Source: Promethearchaeota archaeon (GTDB taxonomy: Archaea > Asgardarchaeota > Lokiarchaeia > Sigyniarchaeales > SOKP01). From it: a stretch of 64,000 nt of DNA. Of the stretch, positions 3,751 to 36,724 are shown one piece after another. The stretch covers positions 96,001-160,000 of the forward strand of contig JBHLOY010000008.1 in assembly GCA_048939995.1 (NCBI GenBank). The letters run 5' to 3'. A program made the position numbers and the translations under genes. How positions within the stretch are numbered: position 1 is the first letter of the stretch; each line of letters opens with the position of its first letter. The notes beneath the pieces are model-generated. The model did no database searches. It had not been told where the DNA came from and saw only the letters and a program-made list of their open reading frames with translations.

Positions 3751-4284
3751 TTGAAACATTATAAAGGTTCAAGGCTATATTATTTTAAGGGGATAATTAT
3801 AGTAAGACCATGGTATTGGCCTAAAGGAGGGCAACCTCACAGGACAGAAGAGTTTACGTGGATAATCAAAGAAATATTAGCCGCAAGTTGGTGGCCAGAC
3901 CCTCCTGTTTTTGAGAGATATAAAAAAGAGAATATATCAGTTATAATTAATTGCTCTGAATTTGATAACAAAAACAACATTCCTGATAGATTTATTTACT
4001 ATCACATAAATGTTCCTGATTTTGGTTTACCAACAGAGGAACAAATTGAGGAGTTCCTTAAAATTTGTGATATATACATTAAATTAGGAAAGGCAATTGT
4101 GGTACATTGTGTGGGAGGATGTGGGAGAACTGCCCAATTCATTGTAGCATGGGCTGCAAATAATGGATTCTTGCCAAAAGGGATAGATCCGGTTAGATGG
4201 ATACGTAAACTAAGACCTTGCAGTTTAGAAACTCGGGAGCAAATGGAAAATGCTAGAAAAATAGCGAAAAAGTATCAGAAATAA
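3751..4284 (+). CDS. Dual-specificity / tyrosine protein phosphatase; true start possibly ATA at 3799
   Basis: CX5R loop HCVGGCGRT, acid loop VPDFGLP, RPCSLET. Confidence 0.88.
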   Translation: MKHYKGSRLYYFKGIIIVRPWYWPKGGQPHRTEEFTWIIKEILAASWWPDPPVFERYKKENISVIINCSEFDNKNNIPDRFIYYHINVPDFGLPTEEQIEEFLKICDIYIKLGKAIVVHCVGGCGRTAQFIVAWAANNGFLPKGIDPVRWIRKLRPCSLETREQMENARKIAKKYQK

Positions 4285-26408: not shown

Positions 26409-26888
26409 TTATGATTTAGGGATAATAATGGAATGATCTTCCTTTATCCTGTCTAAAACGAGCTGGGTTTTTATTTCTTCTACTTCTGGAAGATTACGGA
26501 GATTCTCAATCAGTTTCATAGAATCTTCATGATCAAGACATTTAGCCATTATAAAGATTGGATAATCTCCTGTGATAACATAGGCGTATTTAATTTTATC
26601 CATCCGTTCAATTTCCTCTTTAATTTGCTGAAGTGGTTTCCTTGAATTCACTCGAAGGGACGCAATTACCATCTCCCGATAGTTTAATTTTCGGCAGTCT
26701 ATAATCGCCATGTACTTTTTAATAAAAGTCTCTTCTAATTTCTGAATACGAGCCCTTATTGCCGTCTGGCTCATATTAGTCTGTTCTGCAATTTCTCGAA
26801 TTGTTATTTTACCATCTTCTTGTAATAACTCTAAAATTTGTTTATCAATCGCATCAAGCGTTCCAGGGGTAGAATTTGCTATTACCAT
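26409..26888 (-). CDS. Lrp/AsnC transcriptional regulator
   Basis: LDAIDKQILELLQEDGK, HTH, ITGDY. Confidence 0.92.
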   Translation of the reverse strand: MVIANSTPGTLDAIDKQILELLQEDGKITIREIAEQTNMSQTAIRARIQKLEETFIKKYMAIIDCRKLNYREMVIASLRVNSRKPLQQIKEEIERMDKIKYAYVITGDYPIFIMAKCLDHEDSMKLIENLRNLPEVEEIKTQLVLDRIKEDHSIIIPKS

Positions 26889-27384: not shown

Positions 27385-27759
27385 ATGAGAATGTCAACAT
27401 ATACTTTCATGATATCTACTGAGCCGTATAAGTTCGAAGCAGTTGATACTTTGCTTAATTTATGTAGAGCAGTGTTACAAAAAGGACATAATATTAAGGG
27501 AATATTTTTTTACGGAAGCGGTGTCTATAATATTAAAAAAGATATTGAAACTGGTATTACTGTTCGTAATTTACCAGCACGTTTGGAAGAATTTATTAAG
27601 GAGAATCAGATTCCAGTCGCTGGGTGTACAACATGGATTGGACTTTGTGGATTAAATGAGCATTGTTTTATTGATGGTGCAAAAGAAGAAGGATTGGGTG
27701 AATTGTCCAATTGGACAGCAGAATCAGATAAACTAATAATGTTTGGAACAGGGGGATAA
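27385..27759 (+). CDS. dsrE: DsrE/TusD-like sulfurtransferase (copy 1)
   Basis: EPY, IFFYGSGVYN, conserved Cys in AGCTTW, GLGEL. Confidence 0.85.
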   Translation: MRMSTYTFMISTEPYKFEAVDTLLNLCRAVLQKGHNIKGIFFYGSGVYNIKKDIETGITVRNLPARLEEFIKENQIPVAGCTTWIGLCGLNEHCFIDGAKEEGLGELSNWTAESDKLIMFGTGG

Positions 27760-27764
27760 GGAAA

Positions 27765-28133
27765 ATGATCAAATCGGTTGTAATAGTAAGTGACCAATCT
27801 CCAGTCGGAAAAAACTCTGCCATTGAAGCTTTAAGGCTAGGGTCAGGATTTAGGGGATTAGGGGAGGAGATTGACTGCCAGGTGGTACTTATGGGTGATG
27901 CGGTTTACTTATTGAGTAAACACGCAGATCCCTCTAAAATTGGAGTTGATTCTTTTGATGAACCAATGGAAATGGCGGAATTGTCTGATTTAGAAATATC
28001 AGTACTTGACAGCGCTATAAGTGATGCTGGATTAACAAAAGAAGATCTTGTGGAATTTGAGGGTTTAAAGATAATCGATCTCAAAACTCTTGCAGAAATA
28101 ATCGAAAATGCCGATACTACATTTAGATTCTAA
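27765..28133 (+). CDS. dsrF: DsrF/TusC-like protein (copy 1)
   Basis: SPVGKNSAIEALRL, LMGDAVYLL; lies between dsrE and dsrH. Confidence 0.82.
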   Translation: MIKSVVIVSDQSPVGKNSAIEALRLGSGFRGLGEEIDCQVVLMGDAVYLLSKHADPSKIGVDSFDEPMEMAELSDLEISVLDSAISDAGLTKEDLVEFEGLKIIDLKTLAEIIENADTTFRF

Positions 28134-28147
28134 GGTGGTGAATAAAA

Positions 28148-28489
28148 GTGGAAAAAGTTATTGATATGGTATATCTTTTTGGATTTAGTCCTAGATTTGG
28201 GAATGAATTAAACCGATTAGTACCAATTCTAAAAAGCCAGATAGAAAAAGGAAAGAAAATAAGCATAGTGTTCATTCATGATGGCGTTATTGGTACTAGT
28301 TCAAAAGGAAAAATTACAGAATCAGTGAATATACTTAGAGGGTTAATGCTTAAGAAATATGTTATGACTCCTGACTTAGCCGCAAGAGGAATTCCATTAG
28401 AGCATATTCAAGAAGATTTACAGCCCATAGATTATATGGAGCTTGTTGATATAATGGAGAATAGTAATAAAATTATCTCATGGATGTAA
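28148..28489 (+). CDS. dsrH: DsrH/TusB-like protein (copy 1)
   Basis: FIHDGV, DLAARGI, DYMELVD, IISW. Confidence 0.88.
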   Translation: MEKVIDMVYLFGFSPRFGNELNRLVPILKSQIEKGKKISIVFIHDGVIGTSSKGKITESVNILRGLMLKKYVMTPDLAARGIPLEHIQEDLQPIDYMELVDIMENSNKIISWM

Positions 28490-28616
28490 TTTAAGAAAAA
28501 ATAGATAAAGTAAATTCAAAAATATTTTTTAAAACAAATAAATCATGGTTAACAAATAGTTAACTCACATAATTAACAAAATCAAAACAAACAAATTTAA
28601 AAAAAAGGTGTAAATT

Positions 28617-29033
28617 TTGGTAGAAAAAATGAACTTTATTGTAAAAGACAAATCTTTTGAAAAGTTTATGATGATGACAATCTTGGGAACCACTGGAAGT
28701 GCAATGGATGTGGAAATGAATTTCTTTTTCACTTTCTGGGGATTAAACCTTTTAAAGAAGAAGTTTAAGCCCAAAGTAGCCGGAATGCCAACACCTATGA
28801 AAGGTATGGCAGCTGGAATGTTCAGGAAACGATTAAAGAAATTTGGTATGGAAGATCCATGGGCCTTGATCAAAGAAGCTATTGACGAGGGAAAAATGAA
28901 ACTATATCCATGTCAAATGACAATGGATTTAATGAACATTAAAAGAGAAGAAATGTGGGATTTTGTAGAAGATCCTATCGGTGCAGCTGGTTTCATAGAA
29001 ATGGCTGATGGTGGCCAAGTAGTCTCATTATAA
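28617..29033 (+). CDS. DsrE2/DrsE-type sulfur-transfer protein
   Basis: FFTFWGLNLL, YPCQMTMDLM, GAAGF. Confidence 0.88.
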   Translation: MVEKMNFIVKDKSFEKFMMMTILGTTGSAMDVEMNFFFTFWGLNLLKKKFKPKVAGMPTPMKGMAAGMFRKRLKKFGMEDPWALIKEAIDEGKMKLYPCQMTMDLMNIKREEMWDFVEDPIGAAGFIEMADGGQVVSL

Positions 29034-29073: not shown

Positions 29074-29634
29074 ATGTCTGATGTGGAAGAAGAACAACAT
29101 CGGGAATTTATGATTGATGAGGATTTTGACTCAGAGTTTTTTAGAAATATTGAACGTAGATCAAATATATTAAAATGTATCCAATGCGGCACTTGTACTG
29201 CCAGTTGTGAAAGCGGAAGATGGACCGCATTAAAAACACGTTCAATTATCAGGAAAGTTGTGCTAGGAGATTTATCGGTATTAAAGGATCCTGATATTTG
29301 GTTATGCACAACATGTTATCAGTGTTATGAACGATGCCCACGAGATGTAAGGCCTACAGATGTAATTATGGAATTACGAAATTATGCTACTAAGTTAGGA
29401 AACATTTCTCCTAATCATAGAGCGGTTGTTGGATACTTGAAACAATTTGGGCATGCAGTACCCATAAATGATGAGATAAGGAAGCGAAGAGTTGAATTAG
29501 GTTTAGAAGAATTACCTCCTACTGCATTCAAGTTTAAGCAAGAGGGGGATGATAAAGATTTAAAAAATATTGAAGAAAAAATGTTTGATTTACCTCCTGT
29601 TAAGGAGGAAAAAAAGAAAAAAGAGGAGGCATAA
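29074..29634 (+). CDS. hdrC: Heterodisulfide reductase subunit C
   Basis: CIQCGTCTASC, IWLCTTCYQCYERCPR, GHAVP. Confidence 0.95.
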   Translation: MSDVEEEQHREFMIDEDFDSEFFRNIERRSNILKCIQCGTCTASCESGRWTALKTRSIIRKVVLGDLSVLKDPDIWLCTTCYQCYERCPRDVRPTDVIMELRNYATKLGNISPNHRAVVGYLKQFGHAVPINDEIRKRRVELGLEELPPTAFKFKQEGDDKDLKNIEEKMFDLPPVKEEKKKKEEA

Positions 29635-29637
29635 AAA

Positions 29638-30552
29638 GTGGTAAAAGAAAAAACTTTTGCGTTTTTCCTTGGTTGTATCATGCCCAACCGTTATCCTGCG
29701 ATTGAAAAGTCAACCAAATTTGTTATGGAAAAGTTAGGATACGAGATTTTAGACATGGAAAGAGCAACATGTTGTCCTGCACCTGGTGTATTTCGCTCAT
29801 TTAACAAATTTGATTGGATGGTTGCAGCAGCTAGAAATCTTTGTATCGCTGAAAAAATGGATGCTGATATTTTAACAGTATGTAATGGTTGTTTTGGTAC
29901 ACTTCAAGAAGTAAATAAACATCTTAAAGAAAATGAAGATCATAGAGATAAGGTAAATGAGAAGTTGAAAGAAATTGGAGATTATCAGTTTCAAGGAAAA
30001 ATCAACGTCCGACATGTAGCAGAAGTTCTGGGATATGAGGTTGGACCTTGGGGGATTGAAGATTATATTGTAAGGAAACTGAATGCTAAGGCGGCTGTTC
30101 ATTATGGATGCCACTTTTTGAAACCAACAAGGATTCGAGAAATTGAAAGTTCTGAAGGACCAACAATTATCGAAGAATTCGTGGAAGTCTTAGGAATACA
30201 ATCAGTTAGATTTAAAGAACAACTAACGTGCTGTGGCGCAGGAGGAGGTGTAAAAGCATATTCAGGTGATGCAAGTATGACAATTTTTGCGGAAAAAATG
30301 AAGAATATTGATGAAGTGAAGCCAGATTTTATATTAGATATATGTCCCTTCTGTCATTTACAGTTCGAATCGGGACAGGATTACTTAAACAAAAACAAGG
30401 CATGTAATTATGATTACCCTGTAATCCACCTTTCTCAATTAGTTGCATATTGTATGGGCATGGATCAAGAATTTGTGGGTTTACAATACCAATTAATGGG
30501 TCGGGATTATATTTTTGGGGAAGTTGAAGCGAAAAGAGAGGAGGTAGCGTAA
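29638..30552 (+). CDS. hdrB: Heterodisulfide reductase subunit B
   Basis: FLGC, CCPAPG, CNGC, HYGCH, CCGAGGG, CPFCHLQF. Confidence 0.96.
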   Translation: MVKEKTFAFFLGCIMPNRYPAIEKSTKFVMEKLGYEILDMERATCCPAPGVFRSFNKFDWMVAAARNLCIAEKMDADILTVCNGCFGTLQEVNKHLKENEDHRDKVNEKLKEIGDYQFQGKINVRHVAEVLGYEVGPWGIEDYIVRKLNAKAAVHYGCHFLKPTRIREIESSEGPTIIEEFVEVLGIQSVRFKEQLTCCGAGGGVKAYSGDASMTIFAEKMKNIDEVKPDFILDICPFCHLQFESGQDYLNKNKACNYDYPVIHLSQLVAYCMGMDQEFVGLQYQLMGRDYIFGEVEAKREEVA

Positions 30553-32583
30553 ATGACTGTCAAAGAAGAAAAAGTAAAAGAGACAAATGACACTCAAGAG
30601 TCATTAGAGCATGAGGAGAGTGAACCTAGAATTGGAGTGTTTGTTTGTCACTGTGGGCATAATATAGCTGGTACTGTTGATGTTGCTGAAGTTGCAGAAT
30701 ATGCAAAAAGTTTACCGAATGTAGTGAAAGCAGAACATTATATGTTTATGTGTAGTAAACCAGGCGTCCAAATGGTTAAGGATTCAATTAAAGAATTAGG
30801 AGTAGATAGAACTGTGGTTGCCTCATGTTCAAAAAATCAACACGGAAGAACCTTTGCTAATGCCATCCAAGAGATGGGTTTAAACAAGCATCGTCATCAA
30901 CAAGTAAATATTAGAGAATTTGATAGTTGGGTGCATCAAAAAGAAAAGGATAAAGCAACTAAAAAAGCAGAAAGATTAATTGAAGCAGGGGTCAATAGAG
31001 CACGTAAATTAGAAGATGTAGAAACTCGGAGAATTCCTACAACCAAAGCTGCATTAGTTATTGGTGCAGGTATTGCCGGTCTTCGAGCAGCCCACGATCT
31101 AGCAGAATTAGGGATTCCAGTTTATCTGGTTGAGCGAGAATCAACTATAGGAGGACATATGACCCAATTAAACAAGACCTTTCCAACCTTAGAATGTCCC
31201 CAGTGTTCCATATCTCCACTTACTAATGGAGTTGCGAATCATCCATTAATCGAACTTTATACAAATGCTCAAATTAAAGAAGTAGAAGGTTCAATGGGTA
31301 ATTTTGAAGTGGAAATTGAAATCAAACCACGATATGTTAAAGATAATTGTACTTCGTGCGGGGAATGTGCAATTCATTGCCCTGTAGAAGTTCCCAGTGA
31401 ATGGGATAAAGGCATGTCTATAAGAAAGGCTATTTATAAAGCATATCCTCAAGCTATCCCAGCCACATATGTGAGAGACAAGAAAAATTGTATCGAGTGT
31501 AATACATGTATTAATGTTTGTCCAGTTCAAGCTGTTGATTTTTCAATGGAACCAGAAACAAAAAGATTTAAAATAGGCTCTATAGTTGTAGCTACTGGGT
31601 ATGATGAATACGATCCTTCCGAAATTGAAGCTTATCATTATAAACAAGAGGGTTATGAAAATGTTATAACCCAACTGCAGGTAGAACGGATGCTTGCTCC
31701 TGGCTCTTTAACTAACAGTCAAGTACTAAGACCTTCTGACGCTAAAATCCCAAAAAATGTAGTGATGATTCAATGCGTTGGAAGTAGAAATGATCAGGTA
31801 GGGAATATATATTGCACAGGAGTTTGTTGTAAATTTGCGATTAAAAATGCTCGAATTATTAAGGAAATGTATCCTAATTCTAATGTTACCATATGTTATA
31901 TAGATGTAAGAACTCCTGGGTTAAATTTTGAGGAATTATATAAATCCTCCCAGGAAGTGGGAGTACGATTCATAAGGGGAAGACCTTCTGAAATTCTTCG
32001 AGATCCTATTTCTGGAGAATTAAGGGTAATAGTTGAAGATACATTAAGTCAAACACCATTGAAGTTAAAAGCAGATTTAGTAGTATTATCTGCAGCCATG
32101 GTTCCACCAGAAGGAATCGGTCCTTTAGGTTCAAAATTGCATGTTCTTCGATCTAAAGAAGGGTTTTTAAAAGAATTTCATATTAAGATGAATCCCACCT
32201 TAAGCAGTAAAGGTGGTATTTTTTTAGCTGGAGCAATTCAAGGTCCAAAAGACATTTCAGAGTCTGTAGCTCATGCTGGAAATGCTGCTGCATTAGCAGC
32301 TGCTCCCTTAGTAAAAGGATATATTGAAAAAGAAATGTTAATCCCATCCATAGATTTAGACTTATGTGTTAAATGCGGGCTTTGTAAAACTGTATGTGCT
32401 CCTGCTGCGATTGATATAAATGAGGATGGAATCCCTAAGATTAATGAGATAGCATGTAAATCATGTGGTATGTGTATGCCTGCATGTCCAACAGGGGCTA
32501 TTCAATTGTTAAATTTTAGTGATGAGCAACTATTAGATGAAATTGTTGCTGTATCTGGAGGTGTTATATGCGAAAATGAGTGA
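30553..32583 (+). CDS. hdrA: Heterodisulfide reductase subunit A
   Basis: VCHCGHNI, IGAGIAG, KTFPTLECPQC, inserted and C-terminal ferredoxins, QCVGSR, CTGVCC. Confidence 0.96.
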   Translation: MTVKEEKVKETNDTQESLEHEESEPRIGVFVCHCGHNIAGTVDVAEVAEYAKSLPNVVKAEHYMFMCSKPGVQMVKDSIKELGVDRTVVASCSKNQHGRTFANAIQEMGLNKHRHQQVNIREFDSWVHQKEKDKATKKAERLIEAGVNRARKLEDVETRRIPTTKAALVIGAGIAGLRAAHDLAELGIPVYLVERESTIGGHMTQLNKTFPTLECPQCSISPLTNGVANHPLIELYTNAQIKEVEGSMGNFEVEIEIKPRYVKDNCTSCGECAIHCPVEVPSEWDKGMSIRKAIYKAYPQAIPATYVRDKKNCIECNTCINVCPVQAVDFSMEPETKRFKIGSIVVATGYDEYDPSEIEAYHYKQEGYENVITQLQVERMLAPGSLTNSQVLRPSDAKIPKNVVMIQCVGSRNDQVGNIYCTGVCCKFAIKNARIIKEMYPNSNVTICYIDVRTPGLNFEELYKSSQEVGVRFIRGRPSEILRDPISGELRVIVEDTLSQTPLKLKADLVVLSAAMVPPEGIGPLGSKLHVLRSKEGFLKEFHIKMNPTLSSKGGIFLAGAIQGPKDISESVAHAGNAAALAAAPLVKGYIEKEMLIPSIDLDLCVKCGLCKTVCAPAAIDINEDGIPKINEIACKSCGMCMPACPTGAIQLLNFSDEQLLDEIVAVSGGVICENE

Positions 32584-33028
32584 ATGTGAATATATCAAGC
32601 CCGAAGTGCTCGAGAAGATGGAAAATATTGTAGTGTTTATGTGTAATGAGTGTGGCCAAGGTTCTGCAAATACAGCTGGAGTAGCTCGAATGGCATATAA
32701 TCCAGCTATACGTATAGTTCGAGTCCAATGTACGGGTCAAGTAGGACCGATCCAAATTATGGATGCATTGAGTAATGGAGCTGACGCAGTTGCATGTGTC
32801 GGATGCTGTCTAGGGGCATGCCATTTCTTCAATGGTAATATTCTTTCAATGCACCGAATTAAGCTTATGAAGAAGTTATTCAAAGAATTAGGCTACAGTG
32901 ACCAAATTATTAACCAATACACCTCACGAGCTGCAGAAGGTGAAACTGCAGTAGGTGATTTTGAAGATATTGTAGAGAGATTAGCAACTGCAATTAGAGA
33001 GGAGGCGACATTCAAAGATGGATGTTAA
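32576..33028 (+). CDS. mvhD: MvhD-type [2Fe-2S] adaptor; start reassigned to ATG 32576
   Basis: FMCNEC, RVQCTG, GC.LGACHF; GGAGGTG upstream and overlap with the hdrA stop. Confidence 0.9.
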   Translation: MSECEYIKPEVLEKMENIVVFMCNECGQGSANTAGVARMAYNPAIRIVRVQCTGQVGPIQIMDALSNGADAVACVGCCLGACHFFNGNILSMHRIKLMKKLFKELGYSDQIINQYTSRAAEGETAVGDFEDIVERLATAIREEATFKDGC

Positions 33029-34253
33029 AGTTTTTCAATTTAATGGATGCAATAAATGCTTTAATGAAACTATTCTATTAAAAGCAGATTCAAACCATAA
33101 AATTGGGTTTGTATCTAATCCTAGGAATTGGAAAGAGGAGAAAATTGATGTTTCTGTAATTACGGGTTATTTATTACCAGAGGATAAAGAGACTTTAGAT
33201 AAAATTATAAGAAATTCAACAAAAATTATTGCATATGGAGATTGTAGCGCTACTGGTGGAGTTTTTGCCTTATCCAATCAACGGGGTCATAAAGTAACAC
33301 CTTTAAGAAAGATGCAGGAAGGTATCTTGAATGTGTATGGTTGTTTGGGTGAAATAGAAGAACTAGAAGCATTAATTATAGGTAAAGATTTACCGAAACT
33401 AAATAATTTATGTATTGTATGTGGAAGAAAGAAAACGTGTGATTATTTAGAAGAAGTCAAGCGTCAAATAGAATTAGATGACGAAGAGAAATGTTTTAAT
33501 GATCTTGGATACTTATGTAATGGATTTATAGCAAAAGAATGTAAAGAACGATGTATCGATTACAATGCGCCCTGTCGTGGTTGCAAACCTATAATTGAAC
33601 GTTCAGGAATCAGAATGCTGGGAATGTTTGGAACTTTAATGGGAAATATTGAAGTCTCTACAGAGCATTCTGAAAAGGGAGCTACAGATAAACTAGCAGA
33701 TAATGATGACGATGTTACGGCAAGTTTACCTGATATCGTTGGTAATTTCTTTAGATTCACGTTATCTACCTCTGGTTTGCCTAAAGGGAGAATCAACTCT
33801 TCAGGAAGCCTATTAGAAGATGTATTTACAGGGAGATTAATAGAAGAATTACCTTTAATTACGGGTTTATTGGGGGGAGATCGCTCGATTTCACTAACGC
33901 TTAAAGTCCTAGAGACCTATGAAGAAGGTAATAATATAGAAGTAAGTGAGACTACAAAACAATATCGAAAGGAATTATTAGAGTTAGAAAATGAATTACT
34001 AACAACAATAGAATCCAAAGATCCAAAAAAATATAAAGAGGTGACTGATAAGATTCGAAAAATTGCTGGTAATATGAATTTATCTAATCTCTACTATGGG
34101 GGATTTAAATCACAAATTAATGAGAATGATAATTTTGAGGACTATAAAACCCATGTTTTTGATGTGGTTGAAGGTACTTATAAAAATGGTTCGATTGAGC
34201 TTACAATTGATTCCATAGGTATTGTAAAAGAAATAAAAATTAAAGAGGGTTAA
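33018..34253 (+). CDS. MvhG-like Fe-S small subunit fused to a degenerate NiFe large-subunit-like segment
   Basis: GCNKC, GDCSATGG, GC, CIVC, GYLCNG, CKERC...PCRGC; C-terminal LEDVFTGRLIEELPLIT. Confidence 0.75.
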   Translation: MDVKVFQFNGCNKCFNETILLKADSNHKIGFVSNPRNWKEEKIDVSVITGYLLPEDKETLDKIIRNSTKIIAYGDCSATGGVFALSNQRGHKVTPLRKMQEGILNVYGCLGEIEELEALIIGKDLPKLNNLCIVCGRKKTCDYLEEVKRQIELDDEEKCFNDLGYLCNGFIAKECKERCIDYNAPCRGCKPIIERSGIRMLGMFGTLMGNIEVSTEHSEKGATDKLADNDDDVTASLPDIVGNFFRFTLSTSGLPKGRINSSGSLLEDVFTGRLIEELPLITGLLGGDRSISLTLKVLETYEEGNNIEVSETTKQYRKELLELENELLTTIESKDPKKYKEVTDKIRKIAGNMNLSNLYYGGFKSQINENDNFEDYKTHVFDVVEGTYKNGSIELTIDSIGIVKEIKIKEG

Positions 34254-34255
34254 AC

Positions 34256-36724
34256 ATGAGTTTTGAATTATTAAAAGTTGAAATTGTAGACGCTGGCCTT
34301 TGTCAAGGATGCGGCTTATGTGCTGGATCGTGTAAGCATATTGAGATGGAAGTAAAGCGTCCATCCCTTAAAGACTACTGTATTTTAGAGAGAGATGGTC
34401 AAGATTGTGGAAAGTGTTATCAGAACTGCCCTCAAGTTATTCAAAAGAAGTTTGAGGAAAAAGAGCCGTTAGCTTTATATTCTTTAAGGAGTAAGAATCT
34501 TGATGTTCTATCTAAAGCTGCTAGTGGAGGCTTTATCACTACTTTTGTTAAGGAACTTTTAGAGAACCAGACACTTAAGAAAATAGTAATGGTACATGAA
34601 GAGGATGAAAAACCAATTGCGGAAATTGTTTCAAATCCTGAAGAAGCGGTTAAAAAAGCAGGAGTAGTTTATGGTAGATCTGGAGTGTTAGAGCGGTTAG
34701 TAGAAATTACAGGCGAATCTTTTGATCAAATAGGTATTGTTGGTGTGCCCTGTGAAATGCGTGGAGCTGCTGAAATAGAAGAGGAAATGAAACGGGACAT
34801 TCTAAAAATTGGATTGTTTTGTAATTCACAAATTCGTACCGAAGAAACAGATAAAGGCTTAGTATGCTCTCCATGCTGTAATGGCTGTCCTTCTGGAGTA
34901 AATGCTCAGGGATATATTTCATTAATACGTCAGGGCAAATATCAAGATGCTGTAAATCTAATTAGAGAAAACAATCCGCTACCATCAATATGTGGTCGCA
35001 TTTGTACTAATGAATGTGAATATGGATGTACTTTAATCGGAGACGACCATCCCGTCGCAATTCGAGAATTAAAGAAGTTTGTAACGGAGTGGGAGATCGA
35101 AAAAGCAAAAAAAGAAGTAAAAAATATACCGAAATTGAAGAAGAATGCTAAAAAAGTGGCAATTATTGGATCTGGTCCCGCAGGTTTAACTGCGGCTTAT
35201 TATTTGAGAAGAATGGGATATGTAGCAACTATTTTCGAAAAAACCGATCAGACAGGAGGGATGCTACGATTTGGAGTACCCCAATTTCGATTACCTAACT
35301 ATGTCTTAGATTATGACGTTGAAAGGATAATAGAATCTGGAGTTAAAGTAGAACTTAATAAACCATTAGGACATGAAATGACCATTGAGGATTTGAAAAA
35401 TAGTGGTTTTGAGGCAATTTTTATAGCAACAGGTCAATATAAGCCTCGAACCTTGCATTTAGAAGGAGAAGAGCTTCCAAATGTATTTGTGGCAATCAGT
35501 TTCTTAATGGATAGAAAATACCGTTATTGGGAAAATAAAGAAGAATTTAAAGGAAAAACTATAGGGATAATTGGAGGTGGCCCTGTTGCTGTTGATGTTG
35601 CTCAAACTGCATTAAGGTTAGGTGCAGAAAAAATTCATTTAGTAGATATAATGTCAGAAGAACAACTAGAATTAGTTTTAAAGGATATTCCTGAAAATGA
35701 AATGGCTTTCATGCAATATCACTTCAAAACATCCACTTCAAAAATTACACAGAATGATGATGGCAAATTAGTTTTGAATTGTTATAACATAGAATGGGGA
35801 AAACCAGATGAGAATGGAAGGAGACCATTAAATAAAGTACAACAATCCGAATTTGAAATTCCTATTGATAATATCGTAATAGCAGTTGGTCAAGCCGTTG
35901 ATTTTGACCAGATAGATGTTGCTACTAATAACAAGTTAGAAAAAGAACGCAATAAAATCAAGGTAAATGAAATTACTTTTGAAACAAATATTCCAGGAGT
36001 TTTTGCTGGAGGAGACATCATTAACAATTCCAAAGCTGTAGCTATTGCCGCAATAGCACACGGAAAAGAAGCAGCAATTTCAATAGACAAGTACTTGAAA
36101 GGAGAAAATTTAGTAGATGGACGATATAAGAGAGTAAATTCATTTTTCACTGGACCTAATAGACCTCCTAAAGATTACTCTTTGAAACCAGAATCCTTAG
36201 AGGAAGCAACTGAAGAGATAAATTGGTCTTTTGAAGAGATAGATAAGATGTTTAATGAAGATATGGCTTTACAAGAGGCACGTAGATGTTTAAGTTGTAA
36301 TCATTTCTGTTCCCACTGTCAAGATTTCCCAGCAATTTATTCAGATTTAACTGCAGGGGAAATCGGTTCACAAAAGGGATATACTACCGTTGTAGTATGG
36401 ACTGAACGTGGGAAAGAACTTGTTGAACAGGCAATTCAAAAAGGATTGTTTGAACAAGGTAAAGTGAATGAACAAGAACTCAAAACTGCTATCAATTTGA
36501 AATCAAAGAGAGAACTTATGATTTTTAAAAAGACTCCACGACAATATGTATTGGATTATATTACACTTCAAGGGCCTAGTACAATAAATGATATAGCAAA
36601 AAATACTGGAATCGAGGCAAAAAAAGTTAGATATGAAGCACTTCGTTTAGTCCAGTTAATGGAATTAGAAATGAAAGCAGATCAGGATATGGATGAACCA
36701 GTATTTTCAATTATGTGTGATTAA
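34256..36724 (+). CDS. Ferredoxin-FrhB protein with inserted GltD/SudA-type flavoprotein and C-terminal wHTH
   Basis: CQGCGLC/CGKCYQNCP; FrhB SGG, GVPCE, IGLFC; then CCNGCP, CGRICTNECEYGC, GSGPAG, GGGP, FAGGD, EARRCLSC; then FrhB CSHCQD...SDLTAGEIGSQKGYTTVVVWTERG. Confidence 0.88.
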   Translation: MSFELLKVEIVDAGLCQGCGLCAGSCKHIEMEVKRPSLKDYCILERDGQDCGKCYQNCPQVIQKKFEEKEPLALYSLRSKNLDVLSKAASGGFITTFVKELLENQTLKKIVMVHEEDEKPIAEIVSNPEEAVKKAGVVYGRSGVLERLVEITGESFDQIGIVGVPCEMRGAAEIEEEMKRDILKIGLFCNSQIRTEETDKGLVCSPCCNGCPSGVNAQGYISLIRQGKYQDAVNLIRENNPLPSICGRICTNECEYGCTLIGDDHPVAIRELKKFVTEWEIEKAKKEVKNIPKLKKNAKKVAIIGSGPAGLTAAYYLRRMGYVATIFEKTDQTGGMLRFGVPQFRLPNYVLDYDVERIIESGVKVELNKPLGHEMTIEDLKNSGFEAIFIATGQYKPRTLHLEGEELPNVFVAISFLMDRKYRYWENKEEFKGKTIGIIGGGPVAVDVAQTALRLGAEKIHLVDIMSEEQLELVLKDIPENEMAFMQYHFKTSTSKITQNDDGKLVLNCYNIEWGKPDENGRRPLNKVQQSEFEIPIDNIVIAVGQAVDFDQIDVATNNKLEKERNKIKVNEITFETNIPGVFAGGDIINNSKAVAIAAIAHGKEAAISIDKYLKGENLVDGRYKRVNSFFTGPNRPPKDYSLKPESLEEATEEINWSFEEIDKMFNEDMALQEARRCLSCNHFCSHCQDFPAIYSDLTAGEIGSQKGYTTVVVWTERGKELVEQAIQKGLFEQGKVNEQELKTAINLKSKRELMIFKKTPRQYVLDYITLQGPSTINDIAKNTGIEAKKVRYEALRLVQLMELEMKADQDMDEPVFSIMCD

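Follow-up and report, generated by a model that had tools for sequence, protein, structure and literature searches.

A single gene within the 64,000-nt window that we analyzed (positions 96,001 to 160,000 of contig JBHLOY010000008.1, assembly GCA_048939995.1, from a Promethearchaeota archaeon; ~30% G+C) encodes an FrhB-family protein in which a whole NfnB-like flavoprotein module occupies the place of the sub-domain that lines the coenzyme F420 channel. This chain, hereafter FrhB::NfnB, is the last product of an operon that also encodes DsrE-like proteins, the heterodisulfide reductase (Hdr) subunits HdrABC, MvhD, and an MvhG-like protein. Its architecture, the circular permutation of the insert, the loss of the channel sub-domain, the conservation of cluster ligands, the switch of the coenzyme motif, and the operon linkage could be read directly. 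On the strength of these sequence comparisons, we consider that FrhB::NfnB is probably the subunit through which NADH, or possibly NAD(P)H, electrons enter or leave an HdrABC-MvhD-MvhG-like complex devoid of hydrogenase, the acceptor of which is probably sulfur carried by DsrE-type proteins. We favor such a role because the scaffold and cluster chain of an Hdr donor are kept, one wall of the F420 channel is lost, and a StnC-type port with an NADH-type motif has been gained.

The reading frame is open throughout and encodes a single chain of 822 amino acids (aa), which comprises in order a ferredoxin domain, the N-terminal part of FrhB, the NfnB/GltD-like module, the C-terminal part of FrhB, and a winged helix. 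Its features are as follows:

34256..36724, + strand: whole open reading frame, 822 aa, starting 2 nt past the stop codon of the mvhG-like gene
34256..34450, + strand: N-terminal 2x[4Fe-4S] ferredoxin domain, aa 1-65 (Fer4 matches)
34463..34864, + strand: FrhB N part, aa 70-203, with flavin-site motifs A(S/A)(S/N)GG and VVYGR, then GVPC166, GLFC189, and a 14-aa stub (Pfam, Protein Data Bank alignments, column counts)
34865..35110, + strand: iron-sulfur sub-domain of the insert, aa 204-285, with C207, C211, C250, C254, C258, and K273 (nt 35072-35074) (Fer4_20 profile positions 30-111; alignment to 8oh5_C, 9bov_A, 9n5u_A, and 4ylf_B)
35144..36106, + strand: flavin adenine dinucleotide (FAD) and NAD(P)H Rossmann domains of the insert, aa 297-617 (Pyr_redox_2)
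36107..36298, + strand: linker of the insert, aa 618-647, then the permuted first helix and C678xxC681, aa 648-681 (second Fer4_20 match, profile positions 4-35)
36299..36490, + strand: FrhB C part, aa 682-745, where C685xxC688-D supplies the third and fourth cluster cysteines and the DLTAGEIGS motif also lies (FrhB_FdhB_C profile positions 71-148; aligns to 8rja_E, 8riu_B, 3zfs_C, and 7np8_A)
36533..36721, + strand: C-terminal winged helix, aa 760-822, conserved across the family (AlphaFold2 model of the domain alone, Foldseek)

The landmarks used in the initial annotation, which was made from this DNA without database searches, lie where it had placed them: IGLFC at aa 185-189 (nt 34808-34822), CCNGCP at aa 207-212 (nt 34874-34891), EARRCLSC at aa 674-681 (nt 36275-36298), and CSHCQD at aa 685-690. 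Within the insert, the glycine motifs GSGPAG and GGGPVA span aa 305-310 and 440-445, and the motif at the end of strand beta2, HLVDIMSE (aa 461-468; nt 35636-35659), falls at the site of YRR in NADPH enzymes. More than 120 clusters (90% identity level) of ~820-aa proteins, 70-92% identical, carry the identical Pfam set; this conservation rules out an assembly chimera or an artefact of gene calling.

Profile searches and structural modeling show that the host protein is a single FrhB domain that has been split. FrhB_FdhB_N was matched at aa 75-146 with 36.6-39.8 bits (cut-off 22), while FrhB_FdhB_C was matched with a total of 67.5 bits (cut-off 23.3) in two stretches ~460 residues apart, i.e., profile positions 2-49 at aa 157-200 (24.5 bits alone) and positions 71-148 at aa 659-738 (49.8 bits alone). 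Between these pieces lie Fer4_20 (aa 194-283; 80-86 bits) and Pyr_redox_2 (aa 299-603; 99-101 bits). From an alignment of 50 family sequences, we modeled the full-length chain with AlphaFold2. The model is mediocre overall, with a mean predicted local distance difference test score (pLDDT) of 69.7 and a predicted template modeling score (pTM) of 0.45; confidence is good for the flavin domains and for the core of FrhB. Solved FrhB (9r51_B) was aligned by VIA-align to model residues 66..756 with Z 22.9 and 2.6 A root-mean-square deviation (rmsd) over 201 residues, approximately the sum of both FrhB flanks. The next matches (Z 18-22) were ElpB (8rvu_E, Z 21.3), Ethanoperedens FrhB-like proteins (8rja/8riu), Fsr (7np8), and HCAR (5dqr, Z 18). 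A Foldseek search with the full model returned NfnB/GltD/DPD-type chains only, and FrhB surfaced solely in the wide VIA-align comparison. In the model, the two flanks form one compact FrhB fold. The split profile and the modeled fold thus both support the proposal that the module was inserted within a domain instead of being joined to it end to end, and the flanks do assemble at the level of the model.

The insert has displaced a functional element of this fold. In Methanothermobacter FrhB, the [4Fe-4S] cluster is bound by Cys104, Cys134, Cys192, and Cys195, and from Cys134 to Cys192 the chain folds into a helix and a small sheet, in which an IGKGK turn is conserved (PMC3591093). The sub-domain of residues 128-188 lines the F420 channel and forms one of its walls (PMC3591093, PMC3930138). 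The four aligned cysteines of FrhB::NfnB (C166, C189, C685, and C688, respectively) are invariant in the 50 sequences. Between the second and third of them, however, just 14 host residues follow C189 and 3 precede C685, with the insert in between, whereas six intact FrhB paralogs from the same genome keep ~57 residues there, including a D-I-D/N-K-G-x-F turn. A simple loop insertion leaving FrhB intact was ruled out, given that ~43 of the ~57 host residues are missing at the site; the insert replaces the F420-channel sub-domain. The flavin-site motifs have changed as well, from QDGG to A(S/A)(S/N)GG and from (K/R)Y to V(V/I)YGR, and the altered forms are fixed across the family. Both QDGG and (K/R)Y are kept in F420-dependent Fsr and 8rja_E, and QDGG also in Frh and the six intact paralogs.

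Two readings of the insertion had been offered in the initial annotation. That it replaced the F420-binding part and switched the donor fits the evidence, with the segment between Cys 2 and Cys 3 absent here and retained in the intact paralogs. The other, a chain with two flavin entry points resembling an F420:NAD transhydrogenase, was not supported. Under this alternative the FrhB flavin would still trade hydride with F420, and the chain would link F420H2, NAD(P)H, and the Hdr wire. Consistent with it, the flavin-site residues G91, G92, Y139, G140, and R141 are invariant in the family; the genome encodes F420 biosynthesis proteins (CofD and CofH over family cut-offs, and matches to the CofE-type F420_ligase); and an end-to-end fusion of FrhB with canonical NfnB occurs in the same genome, showing that the pairing of the modules recurs. 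In contrast, the sub-domain forming one channel wall is replaced, the Asp of QDGG and the basic residue of (K/R)Y are both changed, and proteins with an FrhB fold that are free of F420 exist, HCAR being an example. We therefore regard a dual-donor enzyme as unlikely.

Sequence comparisons further indicate that the insert is circularly permuted relative to GltD and NfnB. Using phmmer, aa 204-617 were aligned to residues 45-462 of Thermotoga NfnB (4ylf_B), and separately aa 648-681 to its residues 9-42, i.e., the first helix and the R-C-x-x-C motif. The Pfam matches mirror this permutation: where the insert starts, Fer4_20 is entered only at about profile position 30, and its positions 4-35 are matched once more where the insert ends. 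The description of the insert as a complete GltD-like module thus holds for its content, though not for its order. Fer4_20 and Pyr_redox_2 with the FAD and NAD(P)H glycine motifs are present as in canonical NfnB, but the helix and CxxC that come first in the linear order of that protein are found after the flavin domains. The insert is instead collinear with StnC (8oh5_C), Caldicellulosiruptor NfnA (9bov_A), and Thermococcus NfnA (9n5u_A), which are also the top-scoring sequences for it in the Protein Data Bank.

In these StnC- and Bfu-type NfnA domains, NADPH is oxidized at a non-bifurcating FAD and the electrons pass via two [4Fe-4S] clusters into a longer chain (PMC10482914, PMC11829005, PMC12018979). 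The FAD-proximal cluster has a Lys ligand in StnC and NfnA and a Glu ligand in bifurcating NfnL (PMC10482914, PMC12018979). In FrhB::NfnB, the corresponding residue K273 is invariant and aligns with StnC K170; Glu stands at this position in canonical NfnB, including the canonical NfnB domain of the same genome. The Arg aligned with StnC R239 is also kept. By homology with StnC and with the ligand pattern of DPD, the proximal cluster is predicted to be bound by C211, C250, C254, and K273 and the distal cluster by C678, C681, C207, and C258; two further cysteines, C204 and C208, are lost from the two most divergent family members. The insert thus shares with StnC of the Sporomusa ovata StnABC complex (8OH5) and with Bfu-type NfnA (9BOV, 9N5U), its best matches in sequence and structure, the permuted order with a C-terminal CxxC helix, the Lys ligand, and the nesting in a larger host iron-sulfur protein, for which the domain serves there as a non-bifurcating NADPH input. 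The hosts differ, being NuoG/Fdh-like there and FrhB here, as do the partners, which are HydBC/BfuBC there and the Hdr, MvhD, and MvhG-like proteins of the operon here (BfuBC was searched for within the operon only). The beta2-end motif also differs, with YRR in those proteins and VDIM in this one.

These relationships bear on whether FrhB::NfnB might itself be an Nfn-like bifurcating enzyme, in which the FAD of the insert would bifurcate as in NfnB and the FrhB flavin would play the part of the NfnA flavin. Each chain holds two probable flavin sites and five clusters, and the NfnB structures 4ylf_B and 5jca_L are strong matches. However, the proximal ligand is the Lys of non-bifurcating StnC/NfnA rather than the Glu of NfnB/NfnL, the top-scoring relatives are Bfu-type input domains, no NfnA-like [2Fe-2S] or FNR module was found with Pfam, and the gene is tied to an operon in which a bifurcating HdrA is already encoded. 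Such a self-contained enzyme appears very unlikely to us.

The junction between insert and host reads C678-x2-C681-x3-C685-x2-C688, i.e., the CxxC of the cassette, three residues, and the CxxC of the host. Because the cut point of the permutation falls inside the first cysteine motif, both ends of the cassette lie at its distal cluster. Moreover, since C681 and C685 are three residues apart, as in a ferredoxin motif, the distal cluster of the cassette and the FrhB cluster would have to be neighbors.

We also compared the motif at the end of strand beta2 using a BLAST-based column read. All solved NADPH-dependent relatives carry V-Y-R-R at this position, and YRR was found in 97 of 118 related modules from a library clustered at 50% identity. 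Within the family, by contrast, 48 of 50 members read V-D-I-(M/A); the exceptions are P0121 (56% identity) with V-E-I-R and P0122 (45% identity), the most basal member, which still has Y-R-R. In Rossmann folds, an acidic residue at the end of beta2 favors NAD and an Arg-Arg pair favors NADP. The motif suggests that the inserted module prefers NADH to NADPH. This motif change, the circular permutation, and the relationship to the input domain of StnC and Bfu-type NfnA had not been noted in the initial annotation. One of the sources consulted (PMC12221290) contains nothing on cofactor-specificity residues.

The two terminal domains extend the FrhB core. At the N-terminus, aa 1-65 align with ferredoxin domains, namely the N-terminal one of Fsr (7np8) and the C-terminal one of FrhG (6qii_G and 3zfs_B), and all eight cysteines (C16, C19, C22, C26, C42, C51, C54, and C58) are invariant. 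At the C-terminus, aa 760-822 modeled alone with AlphaFold2 (pLDDT 81) adopt an H-H-H-E-E order of helices and strands, namely a winged helix, with Foldseek matches to MarR/AspA/Z-alpha-like folds (E ~1e-3, TM-score 0.6-0.7). No Pfam helix-turn-helix family scored over its cut-off for this domain, and a hidden Markov model search detected no other copy in the same genome. The conserved winged helix with its MarR/AspA-like matches, together with the label of predicted transcriptional regulator that the Joint Genome Institute (JGI) gives to some homologues, could point to a redox-sensing regulator that binds DNA and reads the NADH/NAD+ ratio through its flavin and iron-sulfur part. We find this barely credible: the fold matches are weak, a dedicated Lrp/AsnC regulator is already encoded divergently upstream, and 822 aa, five clusters, and translational coupling to Hdr genes are what an enzyme subunit looks like.

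The gene lies at the end of the following operon, all on the + strand and assigned by Pfam and conserved synteny:

27385..29033, + strand: DsrE, DsrE, DsrH, and DsrE2-like genes, upstream in the same operon
29074-29634, + strand: hdrC
29638-30552, + strand: hdrB
30553-32583, + strand: hdrA
32537-33028, + strand: mvhD
33018..34253, + strand: mvhG-like gene, 411 aa, directly upstream of the FrhB::NfnB gene (Oxidored_q6 the sole Pfam match over cut-off)

The order DsrE-like, hdrC, hdrB, hdrA, mvhD, mvhG-like, FrhB::NfnB is identical in nine of ten loci with flanking sequence and in Ca. Lokiarchaeum ossiferum; the tenth locus ends at a contig edge. FrhB::NfnB is last in the operon, always adjoins the mvhG-like gene, and is followed in the window by a 388-nt gap. 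A catalytic hydrogenase subunit is absent from the operon; the genome does encode true [NiFe] large subunits, at other loci. The Lrp/AsnC-type regulator gene (26409-26888, - strand) lies divergently upstream of the dsrE-hdr genes.

Subunits of the FrhB family are established donor arms of Hdr, with FdhB and ElpB passing electrons from F420H2 through iron-sulfur clusters and MvhD to HdrA (PMC12350162). For FrhB::NfnB, we infer its physical association with Hdr, its electron path, and the direction of flow. NADH would hand a hydride to the FAD of the inserted module, from which electrons would pass singly through its proximal and distal [4Fe-4S] clusters, then to the FrhB-derived cluster (C166, C189, C685, and C688), the two N-terminal ferredoxin clusters, the MvhG-like protein, MvhD, and finally the bifurcating FAD of HdrA. 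The inserted module would simply step two-electron transfer down to one-electron transfer in the manner of the StnC/NfnA-Bfu type, without being a bifurcating site, and the FrhB body, its F420 channel wall gone, would provide docking and a wiring scaffold. The same wiring would also suit the reduction of NAD+ by confurcation.

Several points weigh against this assignment. All cluster regions of the full-length model have pLDDT <50, so that neither the geometry between domains nor the state of the old F420 pocket can be read from it. The FrhB flavin motifs are altered yet invariant, and a second cofactor site may persist. The NADH preference is drawn solely from the general rule for Rossmann folds. 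The organism makes F420, which leaves the use of F420 conceivable on physiological grounds. Finally, bifurcation to ferredoxin from NADH (~-320 mV) as donor needs a fairly positive sulfur acceptor.

FrhB::NfnB shares with FdhB of Fdh-Hdr-Fmd (7BKC) and ElpB of Elp-Hdr (8RVU) the FrhB fold, one [4Fe-4S] cluster held by the same four Cys, extra ferredoxin clusters, and, as proposed here, delivery of electrons through MvhD to HdrA. In those proteins, however, F420H2 is oxidized at the FrhB flavin, whereas FrhB::NfnB has the insert in place of the channel sub-domain and carries altered flavin motifs. Sulfate reducers possess an NADH-dependent Hdr system, FlxABCD-HdrABC. Its overall reaction type is the one proposed here, in which HdrABC with an MvhD-like connector is fed by NADH and a sulfur carrier is the acceptor. 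Its input proteins, however, are not known to be related, nor is FlxA known to be an FrhB or NfnB chimera; the name FlxABCD-HdrABC appears in PMC7015854. In HdrA9-11 of anaerobic methanotrophic archaea (ANME-1), an NfnB-like cassette of ~500 aa interrupts an iron-sulfur domain and was proposed as a site of NAD(P)H entry (Chadwick et al. 2022, PMC9012536). There too an NfnB-like cassette sits inside an iron-sulfur protein of an Hdr system, and the HdrA cassette of the present genome falls in the clade of the insert. The ANME-1 insertion differs in lying within HdrA's own ferredoxin domain rather than in an FrhB-type donor subunit, and in keeping YRR.

We then asked how widely the cassette occurs. 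In a library of 1.84 billion proteins, the whole architecture was recovered in only two other clusters at 50% identity, plus fragments, while the permuted module alone was present in hundreds of multidomain proteins, e.g., with HdrA-MvhD, NuoG/molybdopterin, and ferredoxin-CCG hosts. Related Asgard genomes encode ~920-aa proteins in which a cassette 41-56% identical to the insert lies between an HdrC-like ferredoxin part and an HdrB-like 2xCCG part. Such HdrCB-hosted loci include L025:1101-3863 (-), L029:1413-4196 (+), and five more (L026-L031), and their cassettes fall into two types, with VDIL in those that are 53-56% identical to the insert and YRR in those with 41-45% identity; no HdrCB-hosted cassette was matched in the genome of the window at E <= 1e-100. 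This genome does encode an HdrA of 1655 aa into which, as in the ANME-1 proteins, such a cassette has been placed; it is permuted, NfnB-like, of the YRR type, and 40% identical to the insert (G000:C17:~300800-305700). Further HdrA and MvhD matches follow that frame.

A midpoint-rooted FastTree phylogeny of 66 cassettes, for which support is Shimodaira-Hasegawa-like (SH-like) only, without bootstrap, placed the FrhB-, HdrCB-, and HdrA-hosted Asgard cassettes in one clade (support 99). Inside this clade, the sister of the main FrhB-hosted group is a set of four HdrCB-hosted cassettes, P0122 falling outside (support 99), and the host label changes at least twice. Those four cassettes read V-D-I-L, whereas the more distant HdrCB and HdrA cassettes read Y-R-R. 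The simplest reading, which we offer as a lead, would have the cassette change hosts once its motif had already switched. More broadly and quite tentatively, the permuted NfnL-like unit may be a portable plug-in port for NAD(P)H, the ends of which meet at its distal cluster, so that it splices between host [4Fe-4S] cysteine ligands and is wired at once. It would have moved among at least three Lokiarchaeia hosts (FrhB, an HdrC-HdrB fusion, and HdrA) and switched a single time from NADPH to NADH; within FrhB, it would have displaced the F420 channel, converting a donor arm of the F420/H2 lineage to one driven by NADH, in an Hdr complex that acts on sulfur bound to protein.

Neither building block is new, nor is the notion that an NfnB-like cassette can be nested in a host. 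In the literature searched, we found no description of a chimera of FrhB with GltD, SudA, or NfnB in Asgard archaea, nor of replacement of the F420 sub-domain, permutation as what permits splicing between cluster ligands, the motif switch, or the link to an Asgard Hdr operon; the paper on L. ossiferum does not mention Hdr, hydrogenase, F420, or NADH. FrhB::NfnB would represent a natural swap of donor in a flavin-based electron-bifurcating system through domain replacement, and its precise junction, with three residues between the CxxC of the cassette and that of the host, shows how the wiring was kept. The operon also has a bearing on metabolic reconstructions that feed models of eukaryogenesis. 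With its mvhD and mvhG-like genes, it could be misread as an MvhADG-HdrABC hydrogenase, whereas it ends in an NADH-type input protein and has no catalytic hydrogenase subunit. Its presence in cultured Ca. Lokiarchaeum ossiferum makes the donor (NADH, NADPH, F420H2, or H2) and the acceptor directly testable.

The genome is rich in related proteins. We identified eight other FrhB-family paralogs, at least 12 HdrA paralogs, and ~13 MvhD paralogs, the latter two groups being spread over contigs C7, C8, C13, C17, C19, C21, C26, and C33. There are several HdrA-MvhD-FrhB clusters (e.g., C26:42498-47615 and C21:21515-25509), and an HdrA-like/MvhD pair has a true [NiFe] large subunit as its neighbor at C13:239985-244314. 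A 907-aa protein encoded outside the window (G000:C17:80303-83050) is an end-to-end fusion of an intact FrhB, its F420 sub-domain retained, with a canonical, non-permuted NfnB-like domain that has the Glu ligand and the YRR motif; its N-terminal extension is common to two other FrhB paralogs. This fusion may work as an enzyme of the F420:NADP type, and it offers a natural point of comparison for the inserted arrangement.

We also surveyed 301 genomes of the phylum for FrhB::NfnB. Full-length or contig-cut copies were present in 38 of them, of which 35 belong to the family of the window's genome (that genome included, and 34 of 68 other members). A sister family accounts for two more (of seven genomes), and the remaining copy comes from a genome with 9% contamination that belongs to an unrelated family; no copy was found in the 27 other families sampled. 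The architecture is accordingly common within one Asgard family, and of the caveat in the initial annotation that it might be both common and characterized, only the first part holds. A single-contig, 4.4-Mb genome of the same order (G210), which may come from a cultured strain, gave no FrhB::NfnB match with this query, only a canonical 488-aa NfnB-like match (G210:C1:312219-313553).

Named records are almost all metagenome-assembled genomes (MAGs) of Promethearchaeota/Promethearchaeia; the complete Ca. Lokiarchaeum ossiferum Loki-B35 genome (55-56% identity) is also among the named records. In one Promethearchaeum sp. MAG, a second copy lies directly downstream of the first (L090:3801-5197); tblastn gave it as two pieces abutting at 4226 (aa 1-150 and 147-471), and this copy may contain a frameshift or be truncated where the locus ends. 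Copies with 71-90% identity occur in records titled Hermodarchaeota, Hodarchaeota, or Odinarchaeota (L032, L038, L041, L046, L058, L061, L072, and L088). One protein (P0004) is named Hodarchaeota at NCBI, whereas its contig (60459 nt, 90% identity) is titled Hermodarchaeota in L032. The phylum labels of these MAGs look unreliable, or their bins mixed, since GTDB puts most copies in one family. In public annotations, the proteins are described only as "FAD-dependent oxidoreductase" or "glutamate synthase beta subunit-like".

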